From Ignavibacteria bacterium UBA2333 (GTDB lineage: Bacteria; Bacteroidota; Ignavibacteria; Kapaibacteriales; Kapaibacteriaceae): DNA of 64,000 nt. Numbering within the stretch: the stretch's first letter is position 1; each line of letters begins with the position of its first letter. This document shows positions 1,464 to 63,914 of this stretch, one piece after another. The notes beneath the pieces were generated by a model. That model did not search any database and was not told the DNA's origin. It saw nothing but the letters and a program-made list of their open reading frames with translations. A program made the translations under genes and the position numbers. The stretch is from NCBI GenBank assembly GCA_002344895.1, contig DDUR01000061.1:125569-189568 (forward strand), written 5' to 3'.

Positions 1464-1468
1464 CAACT

Positions 1469-4264: not shown

Positions 4265-4267
4265 ACC

Positions 4268-6472: not shown

Positions 6473-6532
6473 CCCTCATGTGTTGCGCATAGTGCTTCGT
6501 AATGACCGTATCTCCACCAAAAGGTAACAGTC

Positions 6533-7807
6533 TCAAGGAACGACGTTGGCCACAAACCGACCAAGATAGGCTATCAATTCGCGTTCCGCTTGTTCCGCCG
6601 GCATCCACTCAAATTCAAAGACCATCCCGCCATCTTCACCATCGCCTGTTACGACATGTCGGAATGGGGCAAAAGGGGCATCTTGTAGGACTACTCTACA
6701 GATATGTGCACGGATTCCGTAGTCATCAATGTCAACTGAGTAGAGATACTCCGGAGTGCCAAAATCTATTCCGGTTTCCTCCAACACTTCTCTCCGTGCT
6801 GCCGTCACAATGTCCTCAGTGAGTCCCACCGTCCCCTTCGGAATCTGTGGAGAAACTTCGGGAGCATCGGGACGGCGGAATACCAATATTTGTGGTTTGC
6901 CCTCCGAATGACGAACAATGTAGACAAGCGCTTTGGAAACAAGCACAGGAACGGCCAGGCCAACTGTTTGCTGAAGTGATCGGCGATATTCATCAGGCAG
7001 ACCATCGGCGCACGCCAGAAACATTGCAGCTACGTGATGACGGTATACATCGGAAGCAACAATAGGCAGTGCTTGAAGATGTCCCTGTATTGTTTCAACA
7101 TCTCCACGAACCACCGGTCCCGTGACGGGTATACTCTCTCCAGTCTCGAGTGCACGAATGGCGTTTTCGACAGCCGTCCGGAGTATTGTTGGAATGAGGT
7201 CAATCGGCGATAACGTAACCGACGTAAGGAGTTCCGATGCAAGGACGACGGCATTCTGCACGACATTTGACGCTTCTACCGCAGCAGCGTGATAGACTCG
7301 CTTCTGGTGAGCATCTCCATCTCGTAATAGTACAGGACGGCCGTTGAGCGCACGAACAAAGTTTATGAATTCCTGCTGATGTTCCTTAGCACACTCAATT
7401 CCCCACGAAACATTGCGGAGATCTTCAGCTCCTGCGCCACGACGGATTGTCTGGAATGGATGCACTGATGCCGTAACATATCCATCCTTCTCAAGTGGGG
7501 CTAGTACGGCTCGCGTTTGAGCACCAGAGACGTGAACAACGTAGGCAACCGAAGAAGGTTGTGATGGTAGAATCTGCCGTAAACGTCCAACCATCTCAGC
7601 GATGGCCGCATCCGGTACAGCAAGAAGTATCAAGTCCGCCTCAAGATGTTCTAGATCCGTGTGACGCCGAACCTTTGTCTGATATCCGTTGAGTTGCGCC
7701 GCAGCAGCAATGGCCGAGCCTGCGCGGCCGGAACCAATGACGGTCACGGACTGGATCACGATCGGGGTTCCAGCACATAGCCGGCTGCTCCATCCTTCAC
7801 AGACCAA
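6533..7807 (-). CDS. Fusion protein with an N-terminal Rossmann-fold NAD(P)-binding domain (DUF2520 / pyrroline-5-carboxylate-reductase-like) and a C-terminal NUDIX hydrolase. The start codon is uncertain because the ORF overlaps the cysS 3' end.
   Basis: A GxGxxG motif (VTVIGSGRAGSAIAAAA) sits near the N-terminus. A Nudix box (GTVGLTEDIVTAARREVLEETGI, i.e. Gx5Ex7REVxEExG) sits in the C-terminal third. Confidence 0.55.
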   Translation of the reverse strand: MVCEGWSSRLCAGTPIVIQSVTVIGSGRAGSAIAAAAQLNGYQTKVRRHTDLEHLEADLILLAVPDAAIAEMVGRLRQILPSQPSSVAYVVHVSGAQTRAVLAPLEKDGYVTASVHPFQTIRRGAGAEDLRNVSWGIECAKEHQQEFINFVRALNGRPVLLRDGDAHQKRVYHAAAVEASNVVQNAVVLASELLTSVTLSPIDLIPTILRTAVENAIRALETGESIPVTGPVVRGDVETIQGHLQALPIVASDVYRHHVAAMFLACADGLPDEYRRSLQQTVGLAVPVLVSKALVYIVRHSEGKPQILVFRRPDAPEVSPQIPKGTVGLTEDIVTAARREVLEETGIDFGTPEYLYSVDIDDYGIRAHICRVVLQDAPFAPFRHVVTGDGEDGGMVFEFEWMPAEQAERELIAYLGRFVANVVP

Positions 7808-19441: not shown

Positions 19442-21406
19442 TCACCAGCTTTGCGAGATGGTTGCCCGGAAGATTGTCTCGCGATACGTGCCGCCATACA
19501 CTGCAGGCACTACGCGTTCATCAAAGATATTACGTTCAGCACGTATGTCGATGTTCGCATACTCACCAAGGGCAGCTGTTACTCCGATATGATATCCTGA
19601 ACGAGCACCATAGGTATCATCCAGTGCAAGCATGAGTCCGGCATTACATGATAGTTCATCAAACACGGAGTAAGAACCTCCTATGTCAACGGTTACAATT
19701 CCATTATCCGGCTGGCCAGCGGCCGACTGAACGATGTAACCCAATCCAGCCGTTACGGACAACGGGAAGACGAAGGATAGCGACTGTTGAACGTTCACGG
19801 ACGTTACGCCATAGTCTGAAGCACCCCGAAGTGTTGAGCTGTTCTGTTGGCCATAGGTAAGTGTTGTTCCTGCACCCATTGATCCTATCCGATAATTGTA
19901 TCCGGTGGTGACATTTAACACCGTCGTACGATTGTCGAACCGCAGTAGAGTATCCGTGGCATCATTAATCTGTGCATACGGCGCGTACGACACTCTTAAA
20001 AAAGGCCAGCGTCGGATATTGAGGCCGAGTGTTCCACCGAGTGACGTGATGGTTGTTGTGCTACGTTTCCATGGTATGAGGTTGTCGAGGTCACGTCGGT
20101 AAAACAACCCAACACTCATTTGTCGTTTCCAAAAGGATTGATCTGCACGAACATCATACCGAAGGATGTCTGTTCGCAGGTTGGGTACGGCAAGAGCACG
20201 ATATCCCGGGCCAATACGCCGAATACTTGCGGTAAATCGTGTGCCTGTTTCTCGAATGTTGACAGCTGTTTGTGCGGTGGCAGCCCAGTCGAAGTATGAC
20301 GACGCTGACGAGTCCGAGAGGCCAAGGAGGAATCCTGGAACGTCGTCATCAGAGAGTGTTGGAGCAGTTCTATCAGCAACCGTGAGAGATACTGCTGCTT
20401 CTGCCTGCATCGACCACACACCTTCAATCGGCTCAACACGAAGATCGAGTCCGGTTAACATGTTCTTCTGAGGTGTAAGTGCCGTATTCGAATCAGTCAG
20501 TGCAACACTAACTGGATCGTCCTCAACAAACATTCCGGTGAGAAAGACGTGTGATCCATCACGTCTGCCGACACCTAGTCGAGCCGCATATAGGTGACGT
20601 CCGTAGGCGGAATTGTCAGCCGACGTAAACAGTCCACTGTCAACGCGCACGGAGTCGAACCGCAACAGCGGGCGTTGCATTGTACCACCGGTAACGTGGA
20701 CATAGAACCAACCTGGATTCCATTCGAGCATAGCTCCCTGGATTCGTGCGCCACTCAGTGTGATGGGTGTAAAGGTTGGGAAGACTGTGCCAACGCCAAC
20801 GGTTGGCAATGAAGCCATCACGCGTTCAACGTCTGACATAAACCCCATTGATGACAGAACATCTGTGTAGTCCGATATGTCGCCTTTTGCAACATCACGC
20901 ATTTGTTGGAGCTTTCGATATTCCTCGAGTTCCTTTAATCTTTCCGGATCTACTCGTTGCAGACTATCACGCACCTCATCATACGAATCGAGCAGCTGTC
21001 CGGCCTCCGTACGTGCATAGTCGTTCAGTGCAGCATAAGCACGCTGTGTCACGATACGTCGAACAGCGTCGGGATCCAACGTCAACGAAAAGGCATTGAT
21101 GTTCTGCCGCACATCTCGTTGTTCACTACTCACAAGAACACTTGCTGTGAGAGGAATTCCGTAAAAGAGCAGGCTCGGATTCAGCTCTGCCCTCCACAGA
21201 TCTGGAGGTTTTTCCTGGAACGATCCTTGTCGTGATGCCGACTGTCCGAGTAATCGATAACTCCCCGTGACAATGACAGGTGCTTCGCCACTCCGAGAGC
21301 CAAACACAACAAACGGATTGCGCACAGGACCATTCTGATCCTGTGCCGAGGCCACAGACAGTGCTGCCACGAGAACGAGGGCGAACCCACCAAGTTTTGT
21401 CAACAT
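19442..21406 (-). CDS. Putative outer-membrane beta-barrel protein of unknown family.
   Basis: There is a signal peptide (MLTKLGGFALVLVAALSVASAQ). The C-terminal half shows alternating amphipathic beta-strands and ends in an aromatic residue (...ISQSW). The gene lies 13 nt downstream of the RCC1 gene on the same strand. Confidence 0.5.
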   Translation of the reverse strand: MLTKLGGFALVLVAALSVASAQDQNGPVRNPFVVFGSRSGEAPVIVTGSYRLLGQSASRQGSFQEKPPDLWRAELNPSLLFYGIPLTASVLVSSEQRDVRQNINAFSLTLDPDAVRRIVTQRAYAALNDYARTEAGQLLDSYDEVRDSLQRVDPERLKELEEYRKLQQMRDVAKGDISDYTDVLSSMGFMSDVERVMASLPTVGVGTVFPTFTPITLSGARIQGAMLEWNPGWFYVHVTGGTMQRPLLRFDSVRVDSGLFTSADNSAYGRHLYAARLGVGRRDGSHVFLTGMFVEDDPVSVALTDSNTALTPQKNMLTGLDLRVEPIEGVWSMQAEAAVSLTVADRTAPTLSDDDVPGFLLGLSDSSASSYFDWAATAQTAVNIRETGTRFTASIRRIGPGYRALAVPNLRTDILRYDVRADQSFWKRQMSVGLFYRRDLDNLIPWKRSTTTITSLGGTLGLNIRRWPFLRVSYAPYAQINDATDTLLRFDNRTTVLNVTTGYNYRIGSMGAGTTLTYGQQNSSTLRGASDYGVTSVNVQQSLSFVFPLSVTAGLGYIVQSAAGQPDNGIVTVDIGGSYSVFDELSCNAGLMLALDDTYGARSGYHIGVTAALGEYANIDIRAERNIFDERVVPAVYGGTYRETIFRATISQSW

Positions 21407-21419
21407 TGTGCTGACGGTT

Positions 21420-24323
21420 TTACGGTGTTGCCAATCGCTCAACGCGAATTGGTCCTAGAGGTGGGTCAAGTGGCACAGCGGTAAGATTCGTAATCGGCCC
21501 TTCTCCTAGCTGACCGTATTCGTGTGTTCCCCATGACCATAGTCCACCGTCAGCACGAACGGCCATGGCAAACGTACTTCCTGCGGAAAGGCCAACAACG
21601 GCATCGAGACGTGAGATCTTGACGGGTGTAAAACGGCCCACACGCGATCCGTCACCAAGTTGACCAAGGACGTTATTTCCCCATGCCCAGACGGTTCCTG
21701 TTGAATCGAGAGCCAAGGAGAACGTACCACCAGCGGAGATGGCCTTAATCTTGGGCAACCCTTGCACAACCATCGGCTGATGTCGGTCCTTCGTTGTGCC
21801 ATCTCCAAGCTGACCACTTGCATTTCCGCCCCACGTCCACACTCGCCCATCCTTTCCAAGTGCCATCGTGTGATGATCACCAGCACTCACAGCAATGACG
21901 TCGTACCGAGTAGTTGAAGGGCCCCCAACGGGAGCAAGAACGGGCCACCAGATGGCAGCGGCGGTATCGTCATCAAATCCACATTGGCCATGGTCATTGT
22001 TACCCCATGTGTACACGTTACCTGTCAGTGATAACGCAACGGAGTGTGAATGACCTGCAGCAACCTGACGGATCCCCTTTAACATCCCATGTTTCAGTGG
22101 CTTTGGAATGTGGAGGATTCGTTTGATCTGCGATGCCGTTGCTGGTGTTGAAAGTTCAAAGTTGATGATGGTACCACATTCCCAGGTGCGGTTGTACCCC
22201 CACACATACACGTCACCCTTTTTCGAGAGTGCTAGAGAGTGCCGGCTTCCAGCAGCCACCTGAACTATGTCGGCAAGGCCTAACGACACCGGCTCTGACT
22301 TTTGCTCGCGGCTATCCGTACCAAGTTGCCAGTAGTCGTTATACCCCCACGCCAGGACGTCTCCGGACTGCGTGACCGCTAGCGAATGGTCCATTCCCGA
22401 CGCAAGAGACTGAACGTTTGTTGCTTTGGCAATTTTTGACGGGACCGGTACAACGGCTCCATACGGTTTGGCAACGGATTTACGCAGATTGTCGCCCCAC
22501 CCCCACACAATATTTGGACGCGGCAACATCGCAAGGGAAAGTTGCGATTGTTTTTTCATGATTTCGGGTGACACGTCAACAAGTTGATATTCCGGTCCGT
22601 CTGGTTCATCTTCACTTGATGTTGCGCCCGTGAACCCAGATGTATATTTCTGCATACCTGCGGCTGACGCAAACTTTGACTTAAGCTGCGTTGACGTGCC
22701 GTCGATAACGTTTACCTCATCCAGGATTCCCGAATTCCCCTTCAGTGTTGTAATGTCCTTCGTCAGCTGCTCACGAATCTTGACTGGCAGTTTCTCCGGT
22801 GGCGTTGCGACAAGAGCGTGATTCTCGCCCGCGTCAAGCACCAGCACAGGAAGTTTGACGGTGTCATCCTTCTCTGCATCATGGAAGGTAAAATAGTCGA
22901 CATTGATATGTGCGGATTGTGACGAGTCTCTGATGAGGATGTAGGCGGCACGGTTAAGGTACTTTACAACGTCCCAATCGACGGGTACAAGCCTATCAGA
23001 TGTGCCCCTGCGTTCATCAGCATCGGTAGAGTACAGAACAAGAAACTCTTTTGAGCTTCCAGCCAGTTTGCGTGTGCGCATGGAACCGACCGTGTCCTTG
23101 GCAAGGCGCTCTACAAGAAGCTCAACGTTGGCCATGGGGGAAACTGAGCCACCTACAAGGAAACTCACGACGCTGTGCTTAATCTGAAACTCTTGTGAGA
23201 GCATACTACCCATCGCTGCGTCACCGTCAGCAGCCCCGAGTGACGTGACCCAGTATTTGGCATGATGTCCAAGTGTGCCTAATACGGCGTGTGATTCTTT
23301 TACAGGATCATCAACAAACGATGTCCCGTCAACCGTCCAACACGACAACGTACCTAACTCAAAATCCCAGTTTTCGCCTGGACACGGTATGTCTGCAGCG
23401 AGGTCATCTGTTGCAATAACCGGTGTGCCCCTTCCGCCCCCTCCCGACGTTGTATCTCGTCCGGTGTCATCACGTCCGTCACCGTCATCATCATCACCAC
23501 CATTATCAGCAGATGACGGCATATAGGTAAACGACCATATCTCAGATTCACCGAGTGGGATTCGTGCGCGTGCGCCGTCTTCAAACGCAGCAATTTTCCA
23601 CGCATACCGTTGCTGTGGTTGGAATCTGCGTGCCGAAACGGGATACTGAAGTGTTACGCGTGGCAGACGCTGCTGTTCAAACCATGCAGGATTTCTGGCG
23701 ATGGCGTCGGCAGGCGTCTGTTTTCCGAAAATCTCCACAACGCGAATGTCGTATGAGATACGTTGACCCGGCCCAGGAGGCATACTCGGCATCCATGAGA
23801 ACACGGGTAATAGCTCGGCCACATCTGACTCGTCAGGCGGAGTAATAAGAATCGGGATTGTTAACCTATTTATGATCACAAACTTACAGTCGCGTCCAAG
23901 CACCTGATCATTCTCTGCGAGGATTACCTCGCAGCAGATCGTGTAGTCGCCTGTAGGGACACTTCCCGTTTGTAATAGTGCGTCGCGATATCGAGGATTG
24001 GATTCATCAACGGTCACAGGCTGGACATCATTTCCGGTAACACGTGTACGTCCGGGCTGCAGCGTAAACACCTTCGTACGCGCGTCTGCGATGATACCAT
24101 CAGGTATTGACGTTTCTTCTGCGGTACCATGGAGATAGACCTCCAGGGGACGTCCAGACTGATTGTCGAGATCAATTTTCCAGAGATCACCAATTCGTAA
24201 TTGATTTGGTGGTGGCTGGGTTAATCGAATGGTAACGCGCTCCTGGCTCCGTGACGATTGAATCGTCAAGAGTAGGAATAGGACGGCTATCAGTGCGCCC
24301 CCGCGACTGTGTCTTCTCCTCAT
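21420..24323 (-). CDS. Secreted protein with a C-terminal RCC1 (regulator of chromosome condensation / ATS1-like) repeat beta-propeller.
   Basis: At least six repeats match the RCC1 pattern, including AGSRHSLALSKKGDVYVWGYN..., AGHSHSVALSLTGNVYTWGNNDHGQCG, AGDHHTMALGKDGRVWTWGGNASGQLGDG, AGGTFSLALDSTGTVWAWGNNVLGQLGDG and AGSTFAMAVRADGGLWSWGTHEYGQLGEG. There is an N-terminal signal peptide (MRRRHSRGGALIAVLFLLLTIQSSRSQ) and an Asp/Gly-rich linker. Confidence 0.75.
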   Translation of the reverse strand: MRRRHSRGGALIAVLFLLLTIQSSRSQERVTIRLTQPPPNQLRIGDLWKIDLDNQSGRPLEVYLHGTAEETSIPDGIIADARTKVFTLQPGRTRVTGNDVQPVTVDESNPRYRDALLQTGSVPTGDYTICCEVILAENDQVLGRDCKFVIINRLTIPILITPPDESDVAELLPVFSWMPSMPPGPGQRISYDIRVVEIFGKQTPADAIARNPAWFEQQRLPRVTLQYPVSARRFQPQQRYAWKIAAFEDGARARIPLGESEIWSFTYMPSSADNGGDDDDGDGRDDTGRDTTSGGGGRGTPVIATDDLAADIPCPGENWDFELGTLSCWTVDGTSFVDDPVKESHAVLGTLGHHAKYWVTSLGAADGDAAMGSMLSQEFQIKHSVVSFLVGGSVSPMANVELLVERLAKDTVGSMRTRKLAGSSKEFLVLYSTDADERRGTSDRLVPVDWDVVKYLNRAAYILIRDSSQSAHINVDYFTFHDAEKDDTVKLPVLVLDAGENHALVATPPEKLPVKIREQLTKDITTLKGNSGILDEVNVIDGTSTQLKSKFASAAGMQKYTSGFTGATSSEDEPDGPEYQLVDVSPEIMKKQSQLSLAMLPRPNIVWGWGDNLRKSVAKPYGAVVPVPSKIAKATNVQSLASGMDHSLAVTQSGDVLAWGYNDYWQLGTDSREQKSEPVSLGLADIVQVAAGSRHSLALSKKGDVYVWGYNRTWECGTIINFELSTPATASQIKRILHIPKPLKHGMLKGIRQVAAGHSHSVALSLTGNVYTWGNNDHGQCGFDDDTAAAIWWPVLAPVGGPSTTRYDVIAVSAGDHHTMALGKDGRVWTWGGNASGQLGDGTTKDRHQPMVVQGLPKIKAISAGGTFSLALDSTGTVWAWGNNVLGQLGDGSRVGRFTPVKISRLDAVVGLSAGSTFAMAVRADGGLWSWGTHEYGQLGEGPITNLTAVPLDPPLGPIRVERLATP

Positions 24324-24621
24324 GTTCGGCCTCTCGAACGCCGTGAACCTTGTTTTGAACCGTTCCGAACATACCACGGAAATCGTTCCGTGCAACATCA
24401 CGGAACATCATCAGACAATGTTTGGCCTTGTTTGGCTCACATCTGGCAACAACGCTGTCGATGTGATGAACTGTCCGATATGCCGTAGTTCAGTTTGGCG
24501 CACCCGACGATCTCACGAAGGAAAATGTTCCCTCCACATGGAACAGAAATCATTCTGAGTTGTACGAGTCGATTCGTGGCGTATGTTCGCCACAGGTTCA
24601 TGTAACAGGGAGGAGTTGGCG
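24324..24621. promoter_or_regulatory. Divergent intergenic/promoter region between the RCC1 operon and the giant-gene operon, containing operator-like inverted repeats.
   Basis: A perfect 7-bp inverted repeat with a 4-bp spacer, CACGGAA-ATCG-TTCCGTG, lies at 24375–24392. A palindrome GAAC-C-GTTC lies at 24357–24365, and further GGAAC/GTTCC half-sites follow. GGAGG lies 9 nt upstream of the ATG at 24622. Confidence 0.4.
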
Positions 24622-27600
24622 ATGAAGAGGATCGCCCTCAACGTTGGCGCAATTTCGCGGCGACGCATACCTCGCATTTCGGCTGATGCACGCTCTGCGG
24701 TTGTTGCATTGGTTGGTGCCGAGAGTGTCGTCCTGAGCAGACGGCGCGCCCTAGGCGTGGCCGGTGCGCTTGGTATTCTTGCAGCTCCTGCGGCTCGTGC
24801 CGTAGAGAGTGCACTTTCAGATTCCTATCGAATTGTACGCCGTGGACAGCGTATCGCCATCGTCGTTGCCGACGTTGAGCGGTGGGTTCTCGACCCGTCC
24901 ATGTTCGACGGTAGTCCCGAGACGTTCTATTCGGAGTCCGACGATGGTATTCGCCTGGAACTCCGCCATGCACGATATCCCGGCACATCGATCTCGGCCG
25001 ATATTGTTGCCGAGATTTCACGCGGCACAACACCCGTCGTGCGATTTACGGGTCCGCTATTTGCTGCCCCTTCGTCCGCACCGTTACTTGCATGGCTGCT
25101 CGAACGTGAGAGATACGAAACAACGTGCGCCGTTCGTGCACTGAAGGGATTGCAGTTTGCGGCAGTACTACCCAACGCATCAACGATACGATTTCGGCCT
25201 ACGTGGTCCTTTACCGTCGATGGTCGTGCTGACGTTACGATTGACTCGTTACAGCTACCGTGTGACCGACTTGATGTCCAACTGTTAAAGGCACAACGGT
25301 CGCGTCCATCGTCTCTACTTTCCGGCTCTGCATCGTCTGGTACGTTCCTTCGTGCTGTTCGCGGTACATCTGCGTGGAACATTCCCCTTCAGTTTTCTGT
25401 GAGCCCATCGGCAGAACTTGAGGTTGATGCCGATGCGTTTGACACGTGTTCACTTGAAGTACGCAGTGATGGTCGATTTGCAGGTTTGCTGGAAGGGGGC
25501 CGAGAAGGGGCAAGTAGATTCCAACTCATTCATCATGATGGCCATGTTGGATTCCGCGACGTTCGATATGCATGGACATCGGCAAATGGTGATCGTCATG
25601 AGGCCTTTGTTGCACGATATGCGTCAACACCATCGTGGATTCGCGCACATGGTATTGCCTTTGAGATAAGTGATCGCGAAGGTTTACCTGCATGTGAACT
25701 TGTACGACGTAATGGAGTTGTAGAGCGGTTTGTTGTTGCTCCGGCACTGAACCGCTATCACATCTCGGTTGCAAACGCAGCAACGGAACCAACGGCGGTT
25801 CCCGCCGCATCACAACTTGCCTTCCTGTGTTCGGCTGTTGCACCATCTGCGCTACCAAAGCCACACTTCGCTATGACAGCCGTTCGGCTGGAACCGGCAC
25901 AACAGTTTTCGCAGCAAACACAGATTGATGTCTTCAAAAAGGATACAAAACCGAATATTAAGGTTGGCAAACAATCTGGACGGTGGAGCAAAAAGCCAAT
26001 TGTGTTTGCGACAAATCCGCGCGTTACTGTTATCCGTCCTGAAGACCTGCTCGTCCTGACGTTTGAGTTCCAGAACATTACACTCAACAAGGCTGCGGGC
26101 ACGTTTGCGGCGAGTGGAACAAACTCACGATTAATCGTCCACTTCCAGCCACAGCACATTGCTGAGCGAGCGTTCTTCTATGTTACGGACGACGACACGC
26201 CGAAGGATAAGGTAAATGCCTCTGAAGCACCGGCCAGTGCGCCGAAGAATCAGTCAGGGAACGAGCCTCGTCTTGACCCACCGATTGAGGCCATCATGGC
26301 TCATTCGTCGCGACTTGTCTTTTCCCTTCCGAACGGACACTCCGGTAAGTTTTCTATTGAGGGATTACTCGACTGGTCAAAGCTGAAAATGGTTGTCTCG
26401 CCATCAGCCAAACCGCCTGATGCCGAGTTTGTATTGAGTGTGCTGGCAAAGTCTGCCGTCTCAAAGTTTGGTGGCATTACTGCACCTAAGGATCCCAAGC
26501 CGGGTGGATCGTTCCTCGCCAAAAAGGGCAAAACATCTCAGACAAAGACGTATGCTCTCAGTGGTGGAATAGCGTCGAAGGTAAAATCTTCCACGAAGGC
26601 AGTTGTTGAATCGAATGCCGACATTGCCACCACGATCTCGCCTCAGTTACAGGCAGAGTTAGCAGCAGCTATACTTGAAAAACCGCCGATTCGTGAACCG
26701 AAAGATGACGAAACGGCAATCGAGTATCCGTATCGGCTGTTTATGTCGCCGAACAAGTATGCGGCCTGGGCACACAGCACAAAGGCAAAAATTGACGACG
26801 AACGGCGCGCCGAACTTTGGCATACACGACTCGGCGTACTGCATGCCAGCGGCGAAGTCAACGAAAATGCTGCCTACTTCCGGACGATGCGGGCAATATG
26901 GACGCCCGACATGAAGATTGCCTACAACGTAACGTCGGCAGCTCGTGAGCGTCCGTTCCGTACATCGATTAACAGACGTGACCGGCGCGAACTTGTTCAG
27001 CTCATGAGTGACTATTCACTCAAGGACACGGAAGTAAAGCCGGTTGATGTAAAACGGTTTATGATGACATCACTCGGCGCTTGGGCAGACATGACAGGTG
27101 TCTGGGATCCAAAGGACGGCGAGCTTGACGTAGAACAATGGATTCAGCGCGGTACTCAGGGACGTGATCACTTTGTGCGTATCTGTTACAAAGGTTATCT
27201 CTTCCCGTTTGGACATCGTGCGACACTTGTGAAGGAAACGGAGCGCAAGTTCCGACGGACACCTCGTGGTGACATGGCTGCCTACCTCATGCAGCGTATG
27301 TACATCATCCTGCGTCAACCCGTACGTGACTATCCTGCAGCTGGACTTGCTGGTATGCAGTTCCAGGGTCGGGAGTTCCCCTTCCGTCGAATCACAATTA
27401 CAACGAAGATCACGCCAAATCTTTACGATCCTGGGCTTACGGCCTTGGATGTAGCGAACATGGGGCCAAACTCATTCTGGCCTCAGTTTGACGCAAACGG
27501 TCCGGTTGACGTGAAGTGGTCGTGTATTGGCACTGATTGGGATAATAACGAAGTACACTTCAGTGCACCTCTGGCCTTTATCGCCAACACGGCCGCTATT

Positions 27601-29727
27601 GGAGACAAGTGCCAATCGTGGATTAACAACACGTATAAAAACGAAACAGCACGGCGTACGCTGGAAATGGGCGGTCAACAAATCGCTTATGCAGCATCCG
27701 TCAAACTTGGCGACACGTCACTCCCGACAGGCAAGTTCACACTCCACGGTTACTACGCTCCTGAAGCCGAACAGTACACACCGCGCTTTTTCCCTCGTAT
27801 GGAGAAGTCGAAGGTTCGTATTGAGAAGGTTGCAGAGTTAACGGGCAACAGTGGTGAACGCGATGTTGAGTTCTTTACGAACTACCTCAAACATGCCTTC
27901 GAAAAGGGCCAGTCGTTCTCGAAGGGTGTTGTACCTGCTGCAGATCAGGTAAAAAATCCATCGCAGATCTTCGTTCGTCTTGTTGACAAGCTTGGATTGG
28001 ACTTTGGATCTCAAAGCGACAAGGCAGGCGGTCTTGCCGCACCAAGTCTTGACATCAGTGGCCTGTCCAGACTTATGGGACCGATCGCCGGTGATCTTAA
28101 GACGGACATTGAAAAAACTGCAGCGGCTATCGGAAACTTCGATCCGATGCAGTACTTCGAAAGTCTGTTAAGTGCAAAGATCCTGGGTGATATCACCTTA
28201 AAGGATGTACTCGACTTTGTGATGGACGTCCTGAACAACCTTGACAAGATGCCGTCACTCGACAAGAAGGACGACTTCGGTGTAAAGGATGCCATCAGTA
28301 AGGCCATGCCGAAAAACGAGCTCCTTCAGGCTCTCACGGACAAGATAGCGGAGACGGACCTCGTGAAGTCGGCGGCCGAAGAGCTCAACGCCGTTGCTGG
28401 TGAGCTCGACAAGGACGTAAAGGACGCACGCGACGCCCTGCTCGCAGAAATTGCAGATCTCAAGTCGGAAATCAACGAAGCCAAGAACAAGATCCAGTCG
28501 GACGTTGAAGAAGTAAAGAAGGCCATTGAAGACCGCGTTAACGAATGGAAAAAACGACTCGAGGACAAGGCAAACGAACTCAAGAGTGAGATTGAGAAGG
28601 CCATTAAGCCGCTTGTTGATGCTGGCAACGAAGCCTACAAGAAATACGAGCAAGCACAACAGGCGCTGAATGCGCTTAAAAAGGGCCTTAACCTTTCGTA
28701 TGAATGGCAAACCGAGATCAAGTCGTCACCAGGCAACATTCTTGTTCCTCTATATCCAGGGGCAACAACAAAGGAAAAGAAAGCGATACTCTATCTCAAA
28801 GCGTCGTTCACGAAAAAACTCGACCTTGAGCCGCCTGAGATCTTGATCTATGGATCACTCTCGAACTTTGTTATCAACTTGATTGGTGATGGAGCTGCCC
28901 AGTTCCTCATCATCAAGTTTAATCGACTTGCTGTATCCGCCAAGATTGGCCAGAAGCCGGATGTTGACCCCGACATTGAGGCCGTAGAGTTTGCTGGGCC
29001 ACTGGCCTTTGTCAACAAGCTCAAGGACCTCATCCCAACCGGCGGTTCAGCTGGAGGTGTTGGATTCTCCTTTGACCTCAACGTCAACTCAGCCGGCATC
29101 ACGGCCTCACTGACCATCGGCCTCCCGAACGTCACGGTAGGTGTGTTCTCGCTCATGAACATGTCCTTCCTCATGAGCTTGACGATTCCGTTTGATGGCC
29201 GGAGTTTTTCGTCATACTTCGCCTTCTGTACACGCGAGAATCCATTCCGGCTCACCATCATGATGTTTGGTGGTGGTGGATTCTTTGGCATCGAGATTCA
29301 ACCGTCGGGCGTGCGTATGCTCGAGGCGGCGTTTGAGTTTGGCGGCAACTTCGCCTTTGATTGTGGTGTTGCCTCTGGTGGCGCAAGTGTTATGGCTGGC
29401 GTCTACTACAAACTCGAGCGCAAAGAAATCGATGGCAAGGAAGTTGAACAGTCGGAACTCACCGGATACTTCCGTCTGACCGGCAACCTCAGCATCCTCG
29501 GCATCATTCGCGTTAGCCTACTTTTTGAACTCAAGCTCACATGGCTCAGCACCGGTAAGGTCTTCGGTACTGCCACGATTGAAGTGGAAATCGAGATCCT
29601 CTTCATCAGCTTCTCCGTCGGTGTTACCGTTGAGCGTCAGCTGAAGGGTTCTGACGGAGATCCAACCTTCCACGACATGTTGCCTCAGGCATCAATGTGG
29701 GACACATACTGCAACGCCTTCGCATAA
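24622..29727 (+). CDS. Giant uncharacterised protein of about 1700 aa with a twin-arginine-like N-terminal signal, a central coiled coil and a Gly-rich C-terminal module. I recognise no catalytic motif.
   Basis: It is one uninterrupted ORF. I placed the start at Met-Lys-Arg with GGAGG 9 nt upstream; an alternative ATG lies at 24583. The Tat-like motif is LSRRRALGVAGALGILAAPAARA|VES. The coiled coil is KDAISKAMPKNELLQALTDKIAETDL...EIEKAIKPLVDAGNEAYKKYEQAQQALNALKKG. The C-terminus is ...FGGGGFFGIEIQP...FEFGGNFAFDCGVASGGASVMAGVYYK...TATIEVEIEILFISFSVGVTV. Confidence 0.6.
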   Translation: MKRIALNVGAISRRRIPRISADARSAVVALVGAESVVLSRRRALGVAGALGILAAPAARAVESALSDSYRIVRRGQRIAIVVADVERWVLDPSMFDGSPETFYSESDDGIRLELRHARYPGTSISADIVAEISRGTTPVVRFTGPLFAAPSSAPLLAWLLERERYETTCAVRALKGLQFAAVLPNASTIRFRPTWSFTVDGRADVTIDSLQLPCDRLDVQLLKAQRSRPSSLLSGSASSGTFLRAVRGTSAWNIPLQFSVSPSAELEVDADAFDTCSLEVRSDGRFAGLLEGGREGASRFQLIHHDGHVGFRDVRYAWTSANGDRHEAFVARYASTPSWIRAHGIAFEISDREGLPACELVRRNGVVERFVVAPALNRYHISVANAATEPTAVPAASQLAFLCSAVAPSALPKPHFAMTAVRLEPAQQFSQQTQIDVFKKDTKPNIKVGKQSGRWSKKPIVFATNPRVTVIRPEDLLVLTFEFQNITLNKAAGTFAASGTNSRLIVHFQPQHIAERAFFYVTDDDTPKDKVNASEAPASAPKNQSGNEPRLDPPIEAIMAHSSRLVFSLPNGHSGKFSIEGLLDWSKLKMVVSPSAKPPDAEFVLSVLAKSAVSKFGGITAPKDPKPGGSFLAKKGKTSQTKTYALSGGIASKVKSSTKAVVESNADIATTISPQLQAELAAAILEKPPIREPKDDETAIEYPYRLFMSPNKYAAWAHSTKAKIDDERRAELWHTRLGVLHASGEVNENAAYFRTMRAIWTPDMKIAYNVTSAARERPFRTSINRRDRRELVQLMSDYSLKDTEVKPVDVKRFMMTSLGAWADMTGVWDPKDGELDVEQWIQRGTQGRDHFVRICYKGYLFPFGHRATLVKETERKFRRTPRGDMAAYLMQRMYIILRQPVRDYPAAGLAGMQFQGREFPFRRITITTKITPNLYDPGLTALDVANMGPNSFWPQFDANGPVDVKWSCIGTDWDNNEVHFSAPLAFIANTAAIGDKCQSWINNTYKNETARRTLEMGGQQIAYAASVKLGDTSLPTGKFTLHGYYAPEAEQYTPRFFPRMEKSKVRIEKVAELTGNSGERDVEFFTNYLKHAFEKGQSFSKGVVPAADQVKNPSQIFVRLVDKLGLDFGSQSDKAGGLAAPSLDISGLSRLMGPIAGDLKTDIEKTAAAIGNFDPMQYFESLLSAKILGDITLKDVLDFVMDVLNNLDKMPSLDKKDDFGVKDAISKAMPKNELLQALTDKIAETDLVKSAAEELNAVAGELDKDVKDARDALLAEIADLKSEINEAKNKIQSDVEEVKKAIEDRVNEWKKRLEDKANELKSEIEKAIKPLVDAGNEAYKKYEQAQQALNALKKGLNLSYEWQTEIKSSPGNILVPLYPGATTKEKKAILYLKASFTKKLDLEPPEILIYGSLSNFVINLIGDGAAQFLIIKFNRLAVSAKIGQKPDVDPDIEAVEFAGPLAFVNKLKDLIPTGGSAGGVGFSFDLNVNSAGITASLTIGLPNVTVGVFSLMNMSFLMSLTIPFDGRSFSSYFAFCTRENPFRLTIMMFGGGGFFGIEIQPSGVRMLEAAFEFGGNFAFDCGVASGGASVMAGVYYKLERKEIDGKEVEQSELTGYFRLTGNLSILGIIRVSLLFELKLTWLSTGKVFGTATIEVEIEILFISFSVGVTVERQLKGSDGDPTFHDMLPQASMWDTYCNAFA

Positions 29728-29742
29728 GGTCGGGACAATACC

Positions 29743-32700
29743 ATGGCGACTCAGGAACTACAATGGATGGCGCTTCCCTACGATGTGGAGAAGCGGGACG
29801 GCGCAACGATGTTACGTGTGGCCGTAATGTGTCTTCCAAAACTCCAGGACACTACAACAGCCGATAATACCCTTGCAGAGTATCCGGACTTTACGGACTG
29901 GCCACTCACGCTGCAGGGTATACTTATTGGTCTGAACATCGGTGGAACAAACATCCCACCGACGGACCTCACACCTGTTGATGACGCACCGGACTCGGAG
30001 ACATGGAAGGCCATCTTCCGCCCGACAACTCTCGTGCGCCCGTTTGAGTACAAGCCGTTTACAGATTTTCGGATTTTTTCCTATCCGGTTGGACTTGTAC
30101 AAAAGACAACGGCAGACCTGCTGACGTCCCTTGCAAAGTCCTATGTGAATGTTGAACCGCTTGTACCTCCAATGGGCAACAATGTTGGAGGTATCAACAA
30201 CGACAAACTTTCCTCCGTCGGCGCACAGGATCCTGCCCTTCAACAGCTTTCGCAGATTCTGTTACCCTACATCGAAACAGAGAAAGATGAGATTCAGCTC
30301 AGGTCGTTAAAGCAGCGCTGGGAAACCGAAGGCCGAAACGCAACACTCATGATGATGCGCCAGGAGACGGCTCCAAAACAACAGCGTGATGTGCGGAAGG
30401 GGCCCGTAGAGGTTCCGAGTAATCCTGAGACAATGCTTGAACGACCTGTTTCTCTGGCAACACCCGTTGGCCAGTTACAAATGGTTGAGATCTATCACAC
30501 ACCAAGGAACTATGCTGTTGACGGTGTTGTGAATGGTAAAAAATTACCGCGTGTACAGCGCGTAAAACCGTCACGTCCAAAGTTCGACTTCCATCAGGTT
30601 GTGAGCGTCATGCGTGATTATCCCGTGATGCTTCGCCGTCTTGGCCTTGTTCGTCACTTTGAGTTTAAGATGCCCGATGGCATGTCGGCAAACGGAAAAA
30701 TCCGCGTCAATGTAACGTTCCCTTCACCAAAGGTTGGAACAAAGAACGTTGTACCGTGGACAGCATATCGACTTACAACGTCCGGTGATGCTGCCTACTG
30801 GCAGTTCCTGCCACGTCCTGATAGTGATTCGGAGATTGTTGGGCCGGTACTGTGCCTTAACGACACGACGAATTACGACGTTGTTCAGATTGATGTTGAT
30901 ACTTCAGCAATGAAGACACTCAACTTCACACGCGCTGTTGTTGGTCGACTTAAAAAGACAATGAATACGCGGGATCAGAAGGCCGATGCTTCTCCACCTG
31001 CCGTTCGCGGTACCGGACTACAACTTATTCGCGTTAATCGCGGGTTAAAGCTGGCAAAGTCCCTCATCCGAAATGCAAAAAATTATAACCGTCTTGTTGC
31101 GAATGAAGAGGTAACACTCTACGCAGATGATGTGCTGCGCGGTTATCGAATCGACGTCTTTGATGCGAAGGATAATGCGTGGCGCTCCCTCATGCGTCGG
31201 AATCTTACGTTAAAGTTTCCGGAGGCCGCAACACCAGCTCTTCGTAACACCGGCGTCACCGTCAACGACGAAGAGGGAGTGCTATCGTTTGCAGCCACAC
31301 GACCTGTTTCTCCCGACCCCAATGCCATGCGCAGTCTGTATGCACATGAAACCATTGCTCAGTGGGAGAATTGGTCACTCGTTGCTCCGCGTATCGGCTC
31401 GTTTATTGGTGCCGAAGACGAGCTTCAACCAGATCAACCAACACAGTCATCACCGAACGACTTTGAGTATCGTGTTGACTCTACAGCGTCGATTGTTGCA
31501 AAGTCGCTGCCACGTCTACGATATGGAAGGAAGTACAGACTACGTGCTCGTATCGTTGATGTAGCTGGTAATGGCCCTGCACTCGACGAACTCAATCCGC
31601 TCGACTTCACATGTGCAACGGAACTCATAACGTATCTGCGGTGGGATCCAATTGTATCGCCAACAATCGCTCTCAGGAATCACCCGATCGAAGGTGAATC
31701 TCTCGAGCGTATGGTGATTCGCACGTTTAATGAATCCGACGACGAAACCGTTTTGCCCCCTATCGAAGCCCCTTCCCTTCGTCATGTCTTCCCACCAATG
31801 GCAAGTGTGGAAACGTGTGAGCGTCATTCCTTGTTCGACGATGAGGTTTCTGGCTCGATGAAGTCGGACATGTACGACATCATCGTAAAAAAGACAGGCA
31901 AGACTGGACAACCCGCAGACGTACCCACACAGTGGTATGAGCGTTCTGCAAGTGGTGGACTTGTTCCACTTGGAGCCATCAACACAACTCCTCCCGTTGC
32001 AAAACAGCAGAATGCGATTCGATATCCCATTGCACAGGTAGACAAGGCCGTAAGCCCATACCTGCCTGATCCAATGTCGAGGGCCGTAACGTTCCAGAGT
32101 GTACCGGGCATGAATGCCAACGAGTTGCTGGAAATCTCGATGAGTGGTGTTTCAACTGCTGCCATCACATCGGCCACAGGTGTCGTAACAGTTGCGTTTG
32201 ATGGACTTGCCAATTGGCCAGACGTTGAGAGTATTCTTCTCAAGCTCGATGAAGGAACAGAGAAACCGTCATGGGATGCGGGAACAAAGACGCTGACCAT
32301 CCGCCTGCCAAAGGGCGAACAGGCATGGATTCGATTCTCATCATCATTGGGAACTGATCAGACAGAGGCCGACACACGTTCGGCACTTCATGGTCACATG
32401 TCAACGCTCAACAAGGCAAACGTTACCGGTGGAGCACTCAAAGCTGCCGTACGCGGACTTTCCTGGCTCATCACACCTGGCCGCACACTACACCTCGTCC
32501 ACGCAACACAAAAGCCTCTCAAGAAGCCAAAGGTGGTGAAAGGGGCTGTAAAGGGGCGATGGTTTGATTCAACCAATGCGCGCATTCATCTTACAGAGTT
32601 GTACTGTGATGCACGGTCAACACAGAAGGTAGACATCTCGGCACATTGGGAAATGGACACCGACGATGTTTCGAAACCGGCACCGGAAAAGCTTCAGCAG

Positions 32701-34029
32701 AAAGCACACGTTGGTGATCGTCATGCCGAGAATCGGACAGACGATACAATCGACTTTGACAAAACGCAGGAGTTTGGCGATACGAAGTATCGTCGGATTG
32801 AATACTTACCAACAGCAACTACTCGATTCCGCGAGTTTTTGCCTTTGATACGCAAAAACACCAACGACAAGATTACACGGCTCGGACAAGGGATCACACT
32901 CGATATCCTTTCATCAAAACGACCGGATGGTGTTGATCTGCTCTACGTCGTTCCGTCCTTCCGTTGGGTTGAAGAAAGCAAAACATTTGCCAATGGCCTC
33001 GTAAAAAGCACCCGTAAGGGTGGTGGCCTTCGTGTCTACATGAACAGGCCTTGGTACTCATCTGGTAACGGCGAACTTCTCGGCGTGATTCTCTACTCGT
33101 CAAAAAAATTCTCAACGGGACAGAATGCACCACCAGCCGACAATGGAGTGGGTGGTGGTTCGGGTAACATCACGTTTCAAAAGGGCATAAAGGACTTCTC
33201 GAAATCGAAGGTTGCTACGAATATCGACCTGGCGTTAAACAACCGACTGGATATTCCTGAGCAGCTTCAGCCCTACGTTACGCAGTGGGGCCTGGATCCG
33301 ATCTGGCTTTCTGCACCTACTCCGGCAGATGCTGCTCCTCGTATCCAGAACTTCCGTGTGCCCGACATTGTCCTTGACAGTGTAAGCATTGAAGAGGTGC
33401 CCGCTTCCCAACGATTTAGCGTCATAGGTTACGAACCAAAGTTTGACGCAGAACGTAAACTTTGGTATTGTGACATTGAGGTTGATCCGGCTGAGAGTTA
33501 TTGGCCGTTTCTTCGCCTTGCTCTTTGCAGGCTACAGCCGAAGTCGGTTGCTGACTCACAAACAGGGCGTGACGTCTACGTTTCGCGCATTGTCCAGTCT
33601 GAGTTCTGTCAGCTCGCTCCAGATCGTGAGGCTACGGCCCGTGTTGACGATGGTGACGCTACGGTCACCGTACAGGTGGTCGGCCATACGTATCGTATGA
33701 ACACGGCAGGACATCAGGGCTCCGATATCGAAGTCACCATTGAGCGCCGTAAACCATCAGCAGGTGGTGAAGATCTTGGTTGGGAACCTGTCGTAACACA
33801 ACGTATTGACCGACTCCACGGAGCAAACATGTGGGGTGGTACGATTCCGGTTCAGGGCGGAGTAAATTCTGCTCAACATCGTGTTGTCATCAAGGAATAC
33901 GAACAGTTCTTTGTTGATCCAGAGAAGAATCGTGATTCAAACCTTGGTGACCCCGTTACTGGTGAAGGCGCTATGACGTTCTCACTCGACAAGCGTATTG
34001 TTTACGCTGACATCTTACCACTCTTCTAG
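29743..34029 (+). CDS. Giant uncharacterised protein of 1428 aa with no recognisable domain or signal peptide, coupled to the upstream giant gene.
   Basis: It is one uninterrupted ORF starting 13 nt after the upstream stop. I see no Walker A, HExxH, GxSxG, YD/Rhs or T9SS CTD motifs. Coding-like codon periodicity is maintained throughout. Confidence 0.6.
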   Translation: MATQELQWMALPYDVEKRDGATMLRVAVMCLPKLQDTTTADNTLAEYPDFTDWPLTLQGILIGLNIGGTNIPPTDLTPVDDAPDSETWKAIFRPTTLVRPFEYKPFTDFRIFSYPVGLVQKTTADLLTSLAKSYVNVEPLVPPMGNNVGGINNDKLSSVGAQDPALQQLSQILLPYIETEKDEIQLRSLKQRWETEGRNATLMMMRQETAPKQQRDVRKGPVEVPSNPETMLERPVSLATPVGQLQMVEIYHTPRNYAVDGVVNGKKLPRVQRVKPSRPKFDFHQVVSVMRDYPVMLRRLGLVRHFEFKMPDGMSANGKIRVNVTFPSPKVGTKNVVPWTAYRLTTSGDAAYWQFLPRPDSDSEIVGPVLCLNDTTNYDVVQIDVDTSAMKTLNFTRAVVGRLKKTMNTRDQKADASPPAVRGTGLQLIRVNRGLKLAKSLIRNAKNYNRLVANEEVTLYADDVLRGYRIDVFDAKDNAWRSLMRRNLTLKFPEAATPALRNTGVTVNDEEGVLSFAATRPVSPDPNAMRSLYAHETIAQWENWSLVAPRIGSFIGAEDELQPDQPTQSSPNDFEYRVDSTASIVAKSLPRLRYGRKYRLRARIVDVAGNGPALDELNPLDFTCATELITYLRWDPIVSPTIALRNHPIEGESLERMVIRTFNESDDETVLPPIEAPSLRHVFPPMASVETCERHSLFDDEVSGSMKSDMYDIIVKKTGKTGQPADVPTQWYERSASGGLVPLGAINTTPPVAKQQNAIRYPIAQVDKAVSPYLPDPMSRAVTFQSVPGMNANELLEISMSGVSTAAITSATGVVTVAFDGLANWPDVESILLKLDEGTEKPSWDAGTKTLTIRLPKGEQAWIRFSSSLGTDQTEADTRSALHGHMSTLNKANVTGGALKAAVRGLSWLITPGRTLHLVHATQKPLKKPKVVKGAVKGRWFDSTNARIHLTELYCDARSTQKVDISAHWEMDTDDVSKPAPEKLQQKAHVGDRHAENRTDDTIDFDKTQEFGDTKYRRIEYLPTATTRFREFLPLIRKNTNDKITRLGQGITLDILSSKRPDGVDLLYVVPSFRWVEESKTFANGLVKSTRKGGGLRVYMNRPWYSSGNGELLGVILYSSKKFSTGQNAPPADNGVGGGSGNITFQKGIKDFSKSKVATNIDLALNNRLDIPEQLQPYVTQWGLDPIWLSAPTPADAAPRIQNFRVPDIVLDSVSIEEVPASQRFSVIGYEPKFDAERKLWYCDIEVDPAESYWPFLRLALCRLQPKSVADSQTGRDVYVSRIVQSEFCQLAPDREATARVDDGDATVTVQVVGHTYRMNTAGHQGSDIEVTIERRKPSAGGEDLGWEPVVTQRIDRLHGANMWGGTIPVQGGVNSAQHRVVIKEYEQFFVDPEKNRDSNLGDPVTGEGAMTFSLDKRIVYADILPLF

Positions 34030-53989: not shown

Positions 53990-54002
53990 CACAATGTGAC
54001 AG

Positions 54003-55913: not shown

Positions 55914-63914
<8,001 letters not shown>

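Follow-up and report, generated by a model that had tools for sequence, protein, structure and literature searches.

A predicted twin-arginine signal peptide with an extended, conserved n-region on the giant protein A of a Kapaibacteria gene pair

Two very large adjacent genes, here called A and B, lie in the window (the whole 64,000-nucleotide stretch of DNA that was analysed), and an export signal is apparent on only one of their products. This raises the question of whether a protein as large as A could be exported through the twin-arginine (Tat) pathway, and what would then become of B. An initial annotation of the locus had described an S-R-R-x-A-L motif, a hydrophobic segment, and an AxA site at the N-terminus of A, and all three are found in frame and are backed by conservation. 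The reading that we favor, with a probability of about 0.7, is that residues 1-60 of A are a functional Tat signal peptide of atypical architecture, distinguished by an extended conserved n-region. Protein A would then fold in the cytoplasm, TatC would recognize its RR, and the 181 kDa mature protein would cross the inner membrane folded, to be cut free by signal peptidase I. Protein B (159 kDa), produced from the same tightly packed bicistron, would either ride bound to A as a hitchhiker or stay in the cytoplasm. What is new here is the combination, as predicted from sequence, of a giant passenger with a Tat-type leader whose n-region is both extended and conserved.

Reading frame and architecture of the leader

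Protein A comprises 1701 amino acids when read from the ATG at 24622, within the 24583..29727 open reading frame, and the NCBI annotation gives the same 1701-aa form. Four observations together identify this ATG as the correct start: the spacing of its GGAGG (Table 1), the sharing of Met1, which is aligned in 38 of 46 long-form homologues, the conservation of the leader that follows, and the variability of the stop-free stretches 5ʹ of the start, which differ between loci in length and sequence, without conservation. The RR had been placed roughly 40 residues in from the GGAGG-supported ATG, and it does occupy residues 40 and 41 (24739-24744), after a Ser39 codon at 24736. The suggestion in the initial annotation that the true start might be an internal GTG or TTG was rejected, as orthologues share the same Met about 38 residues upstream of the RR, none of them starting downstream of it, and the leader between is conserved. 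A start at an internal GTG or TTG just before the RR, or at ATG 24583, either of which would alter the 38-residue leader from the one given here, has next to no chance of being right. An in-frame TTG does occur at 24709, and some gene callers choose ATG 24583 (P0001, 1714 aa), but only ATG 24622 has GGAGG at the correct spacing, and the orthologues all align from Met1 with leader positions conserved (L6 in 45/46, L11 in 40/46, and R12 in 38/46).

The stretch that begins at L38, passes through the motif and the hydrophobic segment, and ends with the V-E-S after the predicted cleavage site corresponds to nucleotides 24733-24810 and is in frame with the 24583..29727 open reading frame. Ahead of the motif, the n-region is 38 residues long with a net charge of about +7; behind it, the uncharged run covers 16 residues (A43-A58). 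Cleavage at the predicted site would leave a mature protein of 180.7 kDa.

Table 1. Features of the A-B locus, with positions numbered from the first nucleotide of the window
Feature	Coordinates	Strand	Remarks
Shine-Dalgarno sequence of gene A, GGAGG	24609..24613	+	8 nt 5ʹ of ATG 24622; read off the sequence
Predicted 60-residue Tat-type signal peptide of A, Met1-Ala60	24622..24801	+	predicted signal peptidase I site A58-R59-A60 / V61
Conserved n-region "N-box," A residues 3-18, RIALNVGAISRRRIPR	24628..24675	+	family consensus RLNLxALRxxxLPR, from column counts over 46 homologues
Twin-arginine motif S39-R40-R41-R42-A43-L44	24736..24753	+	fits TatP regex RR.[FGAVML][LITMVF]
h-region A43-A55 (ALGVAGALGILAA)	24748..24786	+	13 residues, 62% Gly/Ala/Ser/Thr
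c-region P56-A-A-R59-A60	24787..24801	+	helix-breaking Pro; basic residue at -2
N-terminal all-beta domain of mature A, residues 61-464	24802..26013	+	restricted to "long-form" members of the family
Conserved family core of A, residues 465-1215	26014..28266	+	motifs VIRPEDLL, HFQPQHIAE, ETAIEYPYRL, ELWHTRLGV, YKGYLFPFGHRATL
Long antiparallel helical hairpin of A, residues ~1231-1353	28312..28680	+	source of weak "apolipoprotein" and coiled-coil matches
C-terminal Gly-rich all-beta domain of A, residues ~1356-1701, and stop codon	28687..29727	+	AF2 strands of 12-20 residues
Gene B, 1428 aa, 158.8 kDa	29743..34029	+	no signal peptide; 15 nt 3ʹ of A
Divergent RCC1-repeat beta-propeller protein, Sec-type signal (MRRRHSRGGALIAVLFLLLTIQSS)	21420..24323	-	co-conserved with A-B in L001, L003
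~654-aa protein, no family match, Sec signal (MLTKLGGFALVLVAALSVASA, then QDQ)	19442..21406	-	co-conserved in L001, L003

To gauge rarity, we used a composite pattern made up, in this order, of [ST]RRx[FGAVML][LITMVF], an uncharged run of 13 residues or more, and a small-x-small site. Across all 141 segments that are free of stops and 100 aa or longer, in the six frames of the whole window, this matched exactly once, at A; shuffling of residues gave an expectation of 0.36 matches over all positions. Conservation is a stronger argument than the rarity of the pattern against the RR of A having arisen by chance.

Conservation of the leader and spread of signals in the family

The initial proposal would have fallen had orthologues lacked the RR. 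R40 and R41 are invariant in 12 of 12 close orthologues from Kapaibacteria and Ignavibacteria (11/11 plus the one at locus L003), with the RR kept at all Kapaibacteria/Ignavibacteria loci that have a complete 5ʹ end, and they are equally invariant in 46/46 long-form homologues of 17-44% identity (about 25%). Over the first 501 residues, no more than eight columns are invariant in the 46 homologues, and these two positions are among them. Around them, position 39 is Ser or Thr in 46/46, position 44 is Leu, Phe, or Ile in 45/46 (Leu in 36), and position 45 is Gly in 31 and Lys in 7. The TatP regex RR.[FGAVML][LITMVF], the default form of which covers 97% of the TatP training set (PMC1182353), fits A (SRRRAL), 11/11 orthologues, and the L003 protein.

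Conservation also extends into the n-region, for which the consensus across the family is M..xRLNLxALR...PR; in addition to the columns given above, N7 is kept in 30 of the 46 homologues, L8 in 33, P17 in 22, and R18 in 20. An n-region conserved in this way implies that it does more than set a distance. The RR lies at a median residue of 39 in the long forms (range 5-58, n = 49), whereas the TATFIND rule expects it within the first 35 residues, and E. coli Tat leaders have it at residues 3-25; we know of no E. coli Tat leader with its RR as far in as that of A. Long n-regions do occur in [NiFe] hydrogenase small-subunit leaders (HyaA, 45 residues) and in PaoA (RR at about residue 25), and some of these are bound by dedicated chaperones. 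A resembles them in the unusual length of its n-region before the RR and differs in the position of the RR at 40-41, in the family-specific box RLNLxALR...PR, and in that no chaperone gene is evident in the A-B cluster. In the AF2 model, residues 1-30 have pLDDT values of 73-86, a hint that the n-region may dock as a structural element on the N-domain of mature A, something unusual for a cleaved leader. The conserved box could represent a new type of cis-acting element for Tat leaders.

At the other end of the leader, AAP is invariant in the close orthologues, and a small-x-small site (Ala or Ser at -3 and -1) falls at the same column in 11 of 12, lying no more than four residues away in the twelfth; Arg is at -2 in 6 of 12. 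In the distant homologues, P56 is present in 34/46 and a basic residue at position 59 (Arg or Lys) in 26/46, with the -3 and -1 positions only loosely small across the 46, including Leu at -3 in 11. In common with generic Tat signals (TIGR01409, PF10518, and TatP), A has S/T-R-R-x-hydrophobic-hydrophobic, followed by an h-region of low hydrophobicity, a c-region that is basic, and AxA. Its clade departs from them in having Ala for Phe at +2 and Gly for Lys at +4, and A itself in having a sequence below HMM detection and a passenger above about 150 kDa (PMC6708511).

In keeping with that departure, neither TIGR01409 nor PF10518 matched the N-terminus of A even at E ≤ 10. Among the N-termini of close orthologues, the Tat HMMs were the top matches, with TIGR01409 found in 3/11 (E 0.005) and PF10518 in 2/11. 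TIGR01409 (Tat signal) was also the commonest curated match on family N-termini (28 of 70, best E 2.9e-4), followed by other Tat leaders, namely, formate_TAT (13 of 70), EfeB, WcaM, PaoA, and hydrogenase small subunit. On the biological scale, the h-region of A was Tat-like and less hydrophobic than the two neighboring Sec signals, scoring +0.07 kcal/residue against +0.12 for E. coli Tat leaders and -0.36 and -0.16 for those Sec signals; the Hessa-scale values and the E. coli leader sequences used are approximate. Kyte-Doolittle values gave no separation (2.15 for A against 2.19 for the neighboring Sec signals). On the same biological scale, the best 11 consecutive residues of the uncharged run came to about 0 kcal/residue, a borderline value for spanning a membrane stably.

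The wider family is very large. A profile of the A core retrieved 3,659 representative proteins (clusters at 50% identity) at E ≤ 1e-3 and 1,882 at E ≤ 1e-30, from Kapaibacteria, Acidobacteriota, Nitrospirota, Chloroflexota, Actinomycetota, and Bacillota; a homologue search with the full-length alignment added almost none, probably because coiled-coil words filled the candidate list. In Acidobacteriota, Aminicenantes, and Proteobacteria, short forms that have no N-domain carry canonical RRxFL leaders joined straight to the core, with unrelated n-regions, such as LTRRRFLYFAG (Aminicenantes and Acidobacteria) and MRRRQLLKLFG (a proteobacterial MAG), and further representatives have ITRRSFVIG, FSRRDFLKL, and ITRREFFKL. 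Independent architectures, as far as their sequences can tell, converge on Tat leaders; of 149 representatives, about 1 had a leader that was clearly of the Sec type. Signals are present in diderm phyla and in none of the monoderm Actinomycetota and Bacillota relatives (Cellulomonas, Arthrobacter, and Paenibacillus). The majority of the family lacks a signal altogether, which means that cytoplasmic folding of the protein is possible, and the spread of signals would fit a cytoplasmically folding module that was later given an export signal for folded proteins.

Export route of protein A and alternative readings

We infer Tat dependence and cleavage of the leader from these patterns, and three other readings were weighed against them. 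The initial annotation had offered an N-terminal membrane anchor as an alternative. Rieske iron-sulfur proteins retain uncleaved Tat signal anchors (PMC1182353), and A resembles them in having an RR followed by a helix able to remain as an N-in anchor; here, the RR and h-region would still be seen by Tat, and the helix would hold A at the inner membrane, on its periplasmic side. Such an arrangement would suit the family-wide variability of -3 and -1, the AF2 model, in which residues 40-66 form one continuous helix, and the replacement of RR leaders by plainly hydrophobic N-terminal helices in the short members P0076, P0083, P0147, and P0185; the conserved n-region would stay attached and could keep a cytoplasmic function. 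Unlike in Rieske proteins, however, the signal-peptidase site is conserved in the close orthologues of A, with A/S-x-A/S at one column after the invariant AAP in the window and in 11 of 12, and the hydrophobic stretch is short, its 16 uncharged residues being rich in Gly and Ala and marginal for a span. The Rieske-type combination of no peptidase site with a membrane-spanning stretch was therefore not found in A and is variable across the family. Taken together, the conserved AxA and the short stretch weaken the anchor proposal, the variable -3/-1 positions still speak for it, and we consider it unlikely.

Export of another kind would be provided by a Sec/SRP-dependent signal that merely contains arginines, with A threaded unfolded through SecYEG and B cytoplasmic, a reading that we judge improbable. 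Several RR-containing leaders of B. subtilis are Sec-dependent, and the TatP regex alone yields 4-7% false positives on Sec proteins (PMC1182353). The h-region of A equals the neighboring Sec signals on the Kyte-Doolittle scale, its own sequence does not reach the Tat HMMs, and threading is easier to picture than folded export for a cargo of 181 kDa. Yet Sec signals need no RR, and the RR is invariant over the 46 sequences while flanking columns vary; a basic c-region residue, a feature described as a "Sec-avoidance" signal, recurs in over half of them; relatives have leaders with the full S/T-R-R-x-F-L-K consensus; and cytoplasmic folding is possible, given the many signal-less relatives. It is more improbable still that there is no export signal, the N-box, RR, and helix being structural parts (for example, a membrane- or partner-binding helix) of an A that stays with B in the cytoplasm. 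The confidence of the model over residues 1-30, as if they were packed on the N-domain, would agree with this, as would the long forms P0169, P0174, and P0206, which have an N-box-like start and a basic linker in place of the h-region, and the many family members and all B proteins that are signal-less. The tripartite layout nevertheless agrees with that of signal peptides at each column, from the charged n-region and RR through 13 uncharged Gly/Ala-rich residues to Pro and small-x-small, most of the HMM matches are to curated Tat leaders, the helix itself is of low confidence in AF2 (pLDDT 52-59), short forms place canonical Tat leaders on the core behind unrelated n-regions, and the co-conserved neighbors are predicted envelope proteins.

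Protein B, neighboring genes, and the size of the cargo

Gene B follows A at 57 of 60 loci, with a median gap of 14 nt. B has no N-terminal hydrophobic segment, and a signal was absent from 42 B homologues and from the B genes downstream of A at the loci examined. The initial annotation had pointed out that A has a signal and B has none, and this asymmetry is both real and general. It had also called the asymmetry notable for a coupled pair, which now looks less odd, as one signal per pair is the Tat hitchhiker arrangement. Known hitchhiker pairs include, in E. coli, hydrogenase-2 HybO/HybC, the DMSO reductase DmsA/DmsB, and the aldehyde oxidoreductase PaoABC (Rodrigue et al. 1999, cited in PMC6708511; PMC4273604). 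As in these, A and B are adjacent genes with an RR leader on one partner and never a signal on the other, so the hitchhiker pattern of one signal per adjacent gene pair is present. The known pairs are redox enzymes that contain cofactors and total 100-140 kDa, whereas A and B would sum to 339 kDa and have no recognizable cofactor domain. No A-B fusion was found among the family members checked; two candidates, P0213 (2,999 aa) and a 3,227-aa open reading frame at locus L060, proved to be expanded A proteins with no B part.

A more speculative extension of the Tat reading, which we think rather doubtful, is that a ~340 kDa A-B complex would be assembled in the cytoplasm and exported whole on the single leader of A. 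The N-box would dock in cis on the folded N-domain as a folding or assembly checkpoint, replacing the dedicated chaperones of redox substrates, and export in diderm phyla would be a repeated later addition to a module that is cytoplasmic in monoderms. If true, this cargo would be over double the upper size quoted for Tat cargo, ~150 kDa (PMC6708511), which mature A exceeds by itself. A with its neighbor B would be a natural test case for both the size limit and hitchhiking. We found no relevant literature account of a giant Tat substrate or of the A/B family.

As for the machinery, neither tatA nor tatC was found in the window by regex or in the 10 kb flanks on each side by Pfam annotation; in a survey of Chlorobia/Ignavibacteria genomes, both were present in 11 of 11 (PMC3827258). 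A NarG homologue at locus L003 was set aside as a pointer to Tat use, as it is of the cytoplasmic type, without a leader. The co-conserved neighbors of A-B are, from their sequences, predicted Sec-exported envelope proteins, and the ~654-aa product, which ends in ...SQSW, is possibly an outer-membrane beta-barrel.

Neither A nor B contains a recognizable cofactor-binding or known domain. The conserved core of A had no match in Pfam, NCBIfam, PADLOC, or PDB-sequence searches, Foldseek against the PDB returned nothing at E ≤ 1e-3, and fold searches gave no convincing match. With A and B, these sequence searches yielded nothing beyond coiled-coil noise that stems from the helical hairpin (apolipoprotein, ZorA, SMC, and LeoA), which was rejected as a product of composition. 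In the AF2 model, the core has pLDDT values mostly above 85 for residues ~691-1100 and lower ones toward 1215, and the C-terminal domain bears only a weak modeled likeness to outer-membrane barrel walls and lipid-transfer folds. For this very large two-gene family, which has no Pfam model or fold match, the leader offers a first handle on localization, and function is approachable in the cultured Cellulomonas, Arthrobacter, and Paenibacillus strains that carry family members.

Leader and start codon of gene A

Read from ATG 24622, the giant uncharacterised protein A begins MKRIALNVGAISRRRIPRISADARSAVVALVGAESVVL-SRRRAL-GVAGALGILAA-PAARA|VES, with Ser39 to Ser63 at 24736-24810 and the codons for R40 and R41 at 24739-24744. 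The initial annotation had accurately described an S-R-R-x-A-L consensus, an h-region, and an AxA site in this segment, and counting from ATG 24622 bears out its placement of the RR some 40 residues past the GGAGG-supported ATG. We regard this N-terminus as a functional Tat-type targeting signal, either cleaved or acting as an anchor, with a probability of roughly 0.7. Every comparative test run supported the proposed combination of a Tat-type signal, a predicted extracytoplasmic A, and a signal-less B, the large protein encoded next downstream. The novelty would lie in a Tat leader whose n-region is both long and conserved, and in its giant passenger, a member of a large family that is uncharacterised.

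Features of the window discussed in the text
Feature	Position	Strand	Remarks
709-aa and 734-aa adjacent pair	2135-6472	-	large envelope-type genes
RCC1-repeat protein gene and ~654-aa protein gene	19442-24323	-	divergent, upstream of A
Shine-Dalgarno GGAGG	24609-24613	+	8 nt before ATG 24622
Gene A	24622..29727	+	product 1701 aa from ATG 24622
A core	26014-28266		residues 465-1215
Gene B	29743..34029	+	1428 aa, start 15 nt past A stop
Lamin-tail-domain protein	52370-54106	-	large envelope-type gene
Reprolysin-like metalloprotease	55914-60839	-	large envelope-type gene; 1641 aa, Laminin_G_3 domains

The first ATG of the A reading frame lies at 24583, and a Shine-Dalgarno sequence is found at ATG 24622 only. 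Because the 13-residue extension from ATG 24583 lacks both conservation and a Shine-Dalgarno sequence, this upstream ATG is probably a mis-called start; stop-free extensions 5′ of the A start vary in length and sequence from locus to locus. Several gene callers nevertheless begin A there (24583-24621; 1714 aa; homologue P0001 and cluster members). The opposite alternative in the initial annotation, an internal GTG or TTG start, was ruled out, since the 38-residue leader is conserved among homologues, orthologues share the start Met, and the 1701-aa form is also that of the NCBI annotation (HCN05208.1).

A search of 5.8 billion proteins for close homologues yielded eleven, with identities of 51-58%; ten are full length. 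It also returned one distant partial sequence. All 11 have an equivalent start Met and, at residues 31-41, [ST]RRx[AV][LI]; behind this come an AAP that never varies and a small-x-small site. The orthologue at locus L003 has the same leader features. In the alignment of orthologue N-termini, the RR is kept, starts do not fall downstream of it, and conservation begins at the leader. The TatP default regular expression (PMC1182353) matches the A of the window and every orthologue. Relative to the predicted cleavage site, position -2 is basic in 6 of 12 close orthologues and 26 of 46 distant homologues. Among 46 long-form homologues, i.e., those with the N-terminal beta domain of A, the leader consensus is M..xRLNLxALRxxxLPR (L6 in 45, N7 in 30, L8 in 33, L11 in 40, R12 in 38, P17 in 22, and R18 in 20). 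In the window's own A, the n-region at 24622-24720 (residues 1-33) also holds a second SRRR, at residues 12-15, with no hydrophobic stretch behind it.

The probable twin-arginine signal across the A family

A composite pattern was defined as [ST]RRx[FGAVML][LITMVF] with a run of 13 or more uncharged residues behind it and a small-x-small site after that. Over the window's six frames, with their 141 stop-free segments no shorter than 100 aa, this pattern matched once, at 24736, and residue shuffles gave 0.36 matches expected over all positions. What argues decisively against chance for the RR pattern is the comparison of homologous sequences. In an alignment of the first 501 residues of 46 long forms, at 17-44% identity to the window, R40 and R41 are two of eight invariant columns.

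A profile of the A core, run against 1.84 billion representative proteins, retrieved 3659 at E<=1e-3, of which 1882 had E<=1e-30. A and B are a very large two-gene family present in many phyla, with no PDB fold match; neither protein matched a Pfam, NCBIfam, PADLOC, or PDB-sequence family, coiled-coil noise apart. By their N-termini, the best 149 representatives form three groups. Nearly all long forms (about 1450-2150 aa, with a beta domain like that of A) carry [ST]RR, at a median RR position of 39, together with the N-box, the conserved n-region box at residues 3-18. Some short forms, which lack the beta domain, begin directly at the core with textbook Tat leaders and unrelated n-regions (ITRRSFVIG, LSRRQFLRL, FSRRDFLKL, ITRREFFKL, LSRRRFLFL, LTRRKFLSY), and other short forms are without any signal. 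As RR/Tat leaders recur across lineages and a clear Sec-type leader was found once (P0166) among these 149, the export signals of the family, where present, are almost always of the Tat type.

Across 70 family N-termini, the Tat signal model TIGR01409 was the commonest NCBIfam match (28/70, best E 2.9e-4), and the next were all Tat leaders: formate_TAT (13/70), EfeB, WcaM, MoCo_extend_TAT, PaoA, PLC, and NiFeSe hydrogenase small subunit. TIGR01409 matched three and PF10518 two of 11 close orthologues; the window's own A N-terminus matched neither. On the biological hydrophobicity scale, with approximate values, the best 11-residue windows of A-type h-regions averaged +0.07 kcal/residue, the mean for nine E. 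coli Tat leaders is +0.12 kcal/residue, and the Sec signals of the two genes adjoining A gave -0.36 and -0.16 kcal/residue. The Kyte-Doolittle scale did not separate A h-regions from these Tat and Sec groups.

Predicted structure and the A-B pair

AlphaFold2 models were built with family alignments for residues 1-501 and 502-1701 of A. The first (pLDDT 84, pTM 0.83) has an all-beta domain over residues 70-420 (pLDDT >90) and a low-confidence helix at 40-66 (pLDDT 52-59); in the second (pLDDT 78, core mostly above 85), two helices pair into a hairpin of about 120 residues, and the strands of the C-terminal beta domain are 12-20 residues long. Residues 1-30 were modeled unexpectedly well (pLDDT 73-86), which points to a docking of the N-box on the N-domain. 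This is the main observation at odds with a simple cleaved leader. Three long forms (P0169, P0174, and P0206) have an N-box-like start and no RR, and a basic linker stands where the h-region would be.

That B lacks a signal, as first noted, held throughout: its N-terminus has no hydrophobic segment, and a signal is absent from all 42 homologues, whose conserved domain starts at residue 1 (consensus xxIxWTALPNG..L.LSV..SPRL), and from the B proteins adjoining Tat-bearing A genes at loci L005 and L006. B starts -26 to +106 nt from the A stop in 57 of 60 loci with a locatable A C-terminus (median gap 14 nt; <=30 nt in 52 loci). No A-B fusion proteins were found as proof of interaction. A single signal per pair is the hallmark of substrates that cross by Tat as hitchhikers (Rodrigue et al. 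1999, as cited in PMC6708511; PaoABC, PMC4273604). The calculated masses are 180.7 kDa for mature A and 158.8 kDa for B. Tat cargo reaches about 150 kDa according to a recent review (PMC6708511); A alone would surpass this figure, and A plus B would be more than double it.

Genomic neighborhood and lineages

The window is chromosomal, from a bioreactor-sludge population, and includes housekeeping genes, namely those for LepA, Ppk, LigA, ProRS, Era, a T9SS plug protein, and PpiD/SurA-like rotamases. Neither tatA nor tatC was found within it or 10 kb to either side; both are present in 11 of 11 surveyed Chlorobia/Ignavibacteria genomes (PMC3827258). Upstream of A, the RCC1-repeat protein and the ~654-aa protein each have a Sec signal; the latter, which has no family match, ends in an aromatic C-terminus and is possibly an outer-membrane beta-barrel. 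Both genes are kept beside A-B at locus L001, in the same housekeeping context as the window, and at L003, in a different one. With A and B they make up a four-gene module, in which these two are clearly extracytoplasmic. The adjacent 709-aa and 734-aa proteins had no family match.

Scanning one genome per species gave 70 loci with A homologues. The 56-63% identical orthologues are from Kapaibacteria/Ignavibacteria MAGs, and wherever the 5′ end of such a locus is complete, RR lies at about residue 37-41. Orthologues at 58-62% identity also occur in MAGs labelled Hyphomicrobiales, Bradyrhizobiaceae, or Didemnitutus (L007, L012, L013, L015, and L021); their leader is that of the Kapaibacteria/Ignavibacteria orthologues, which suggests mis-binned contigs. 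Nitrospiraceae and Thermoanaerobaculia have long forms with N-box and RR, and short forms with canonical leaders come from Aminicenantes, Acidobacteriota, and one proteobacterial MAG (LTRRRFLYFAG; MRRRQLLKLFGLLPLLQA). A Cohaesibacter MAG encodes an expanded homologue of 3227 aa (L060:1687-11370) with a Tat-like leader (LTRRNFLIGPAAIATANSLL); if real, this would predict a Tat passenger larger still than A.

Signal-bearing forms were found in diderm lineages. Signal-less A occurs in cultured monoderms (Cellulomonas humilata, C. fimi, C. composti, Arthrobacter spp., Paenibacillus mendelii, P. aquistagni, P. alvei, and Neobacillus niacini). In P. aquistagni (L043:4633-5937), a subtilase (Peptidase_S8) gene lies directly 5′ of the signal-less A′B′ pair, and on the contig encoding homologue P0012 (genes at 1120-6990) an S8 peptidase gene and then an M14/VWA gene precede it. 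The S8 peptidase may be a functional partner of cytoplasmic A′B′ versions.
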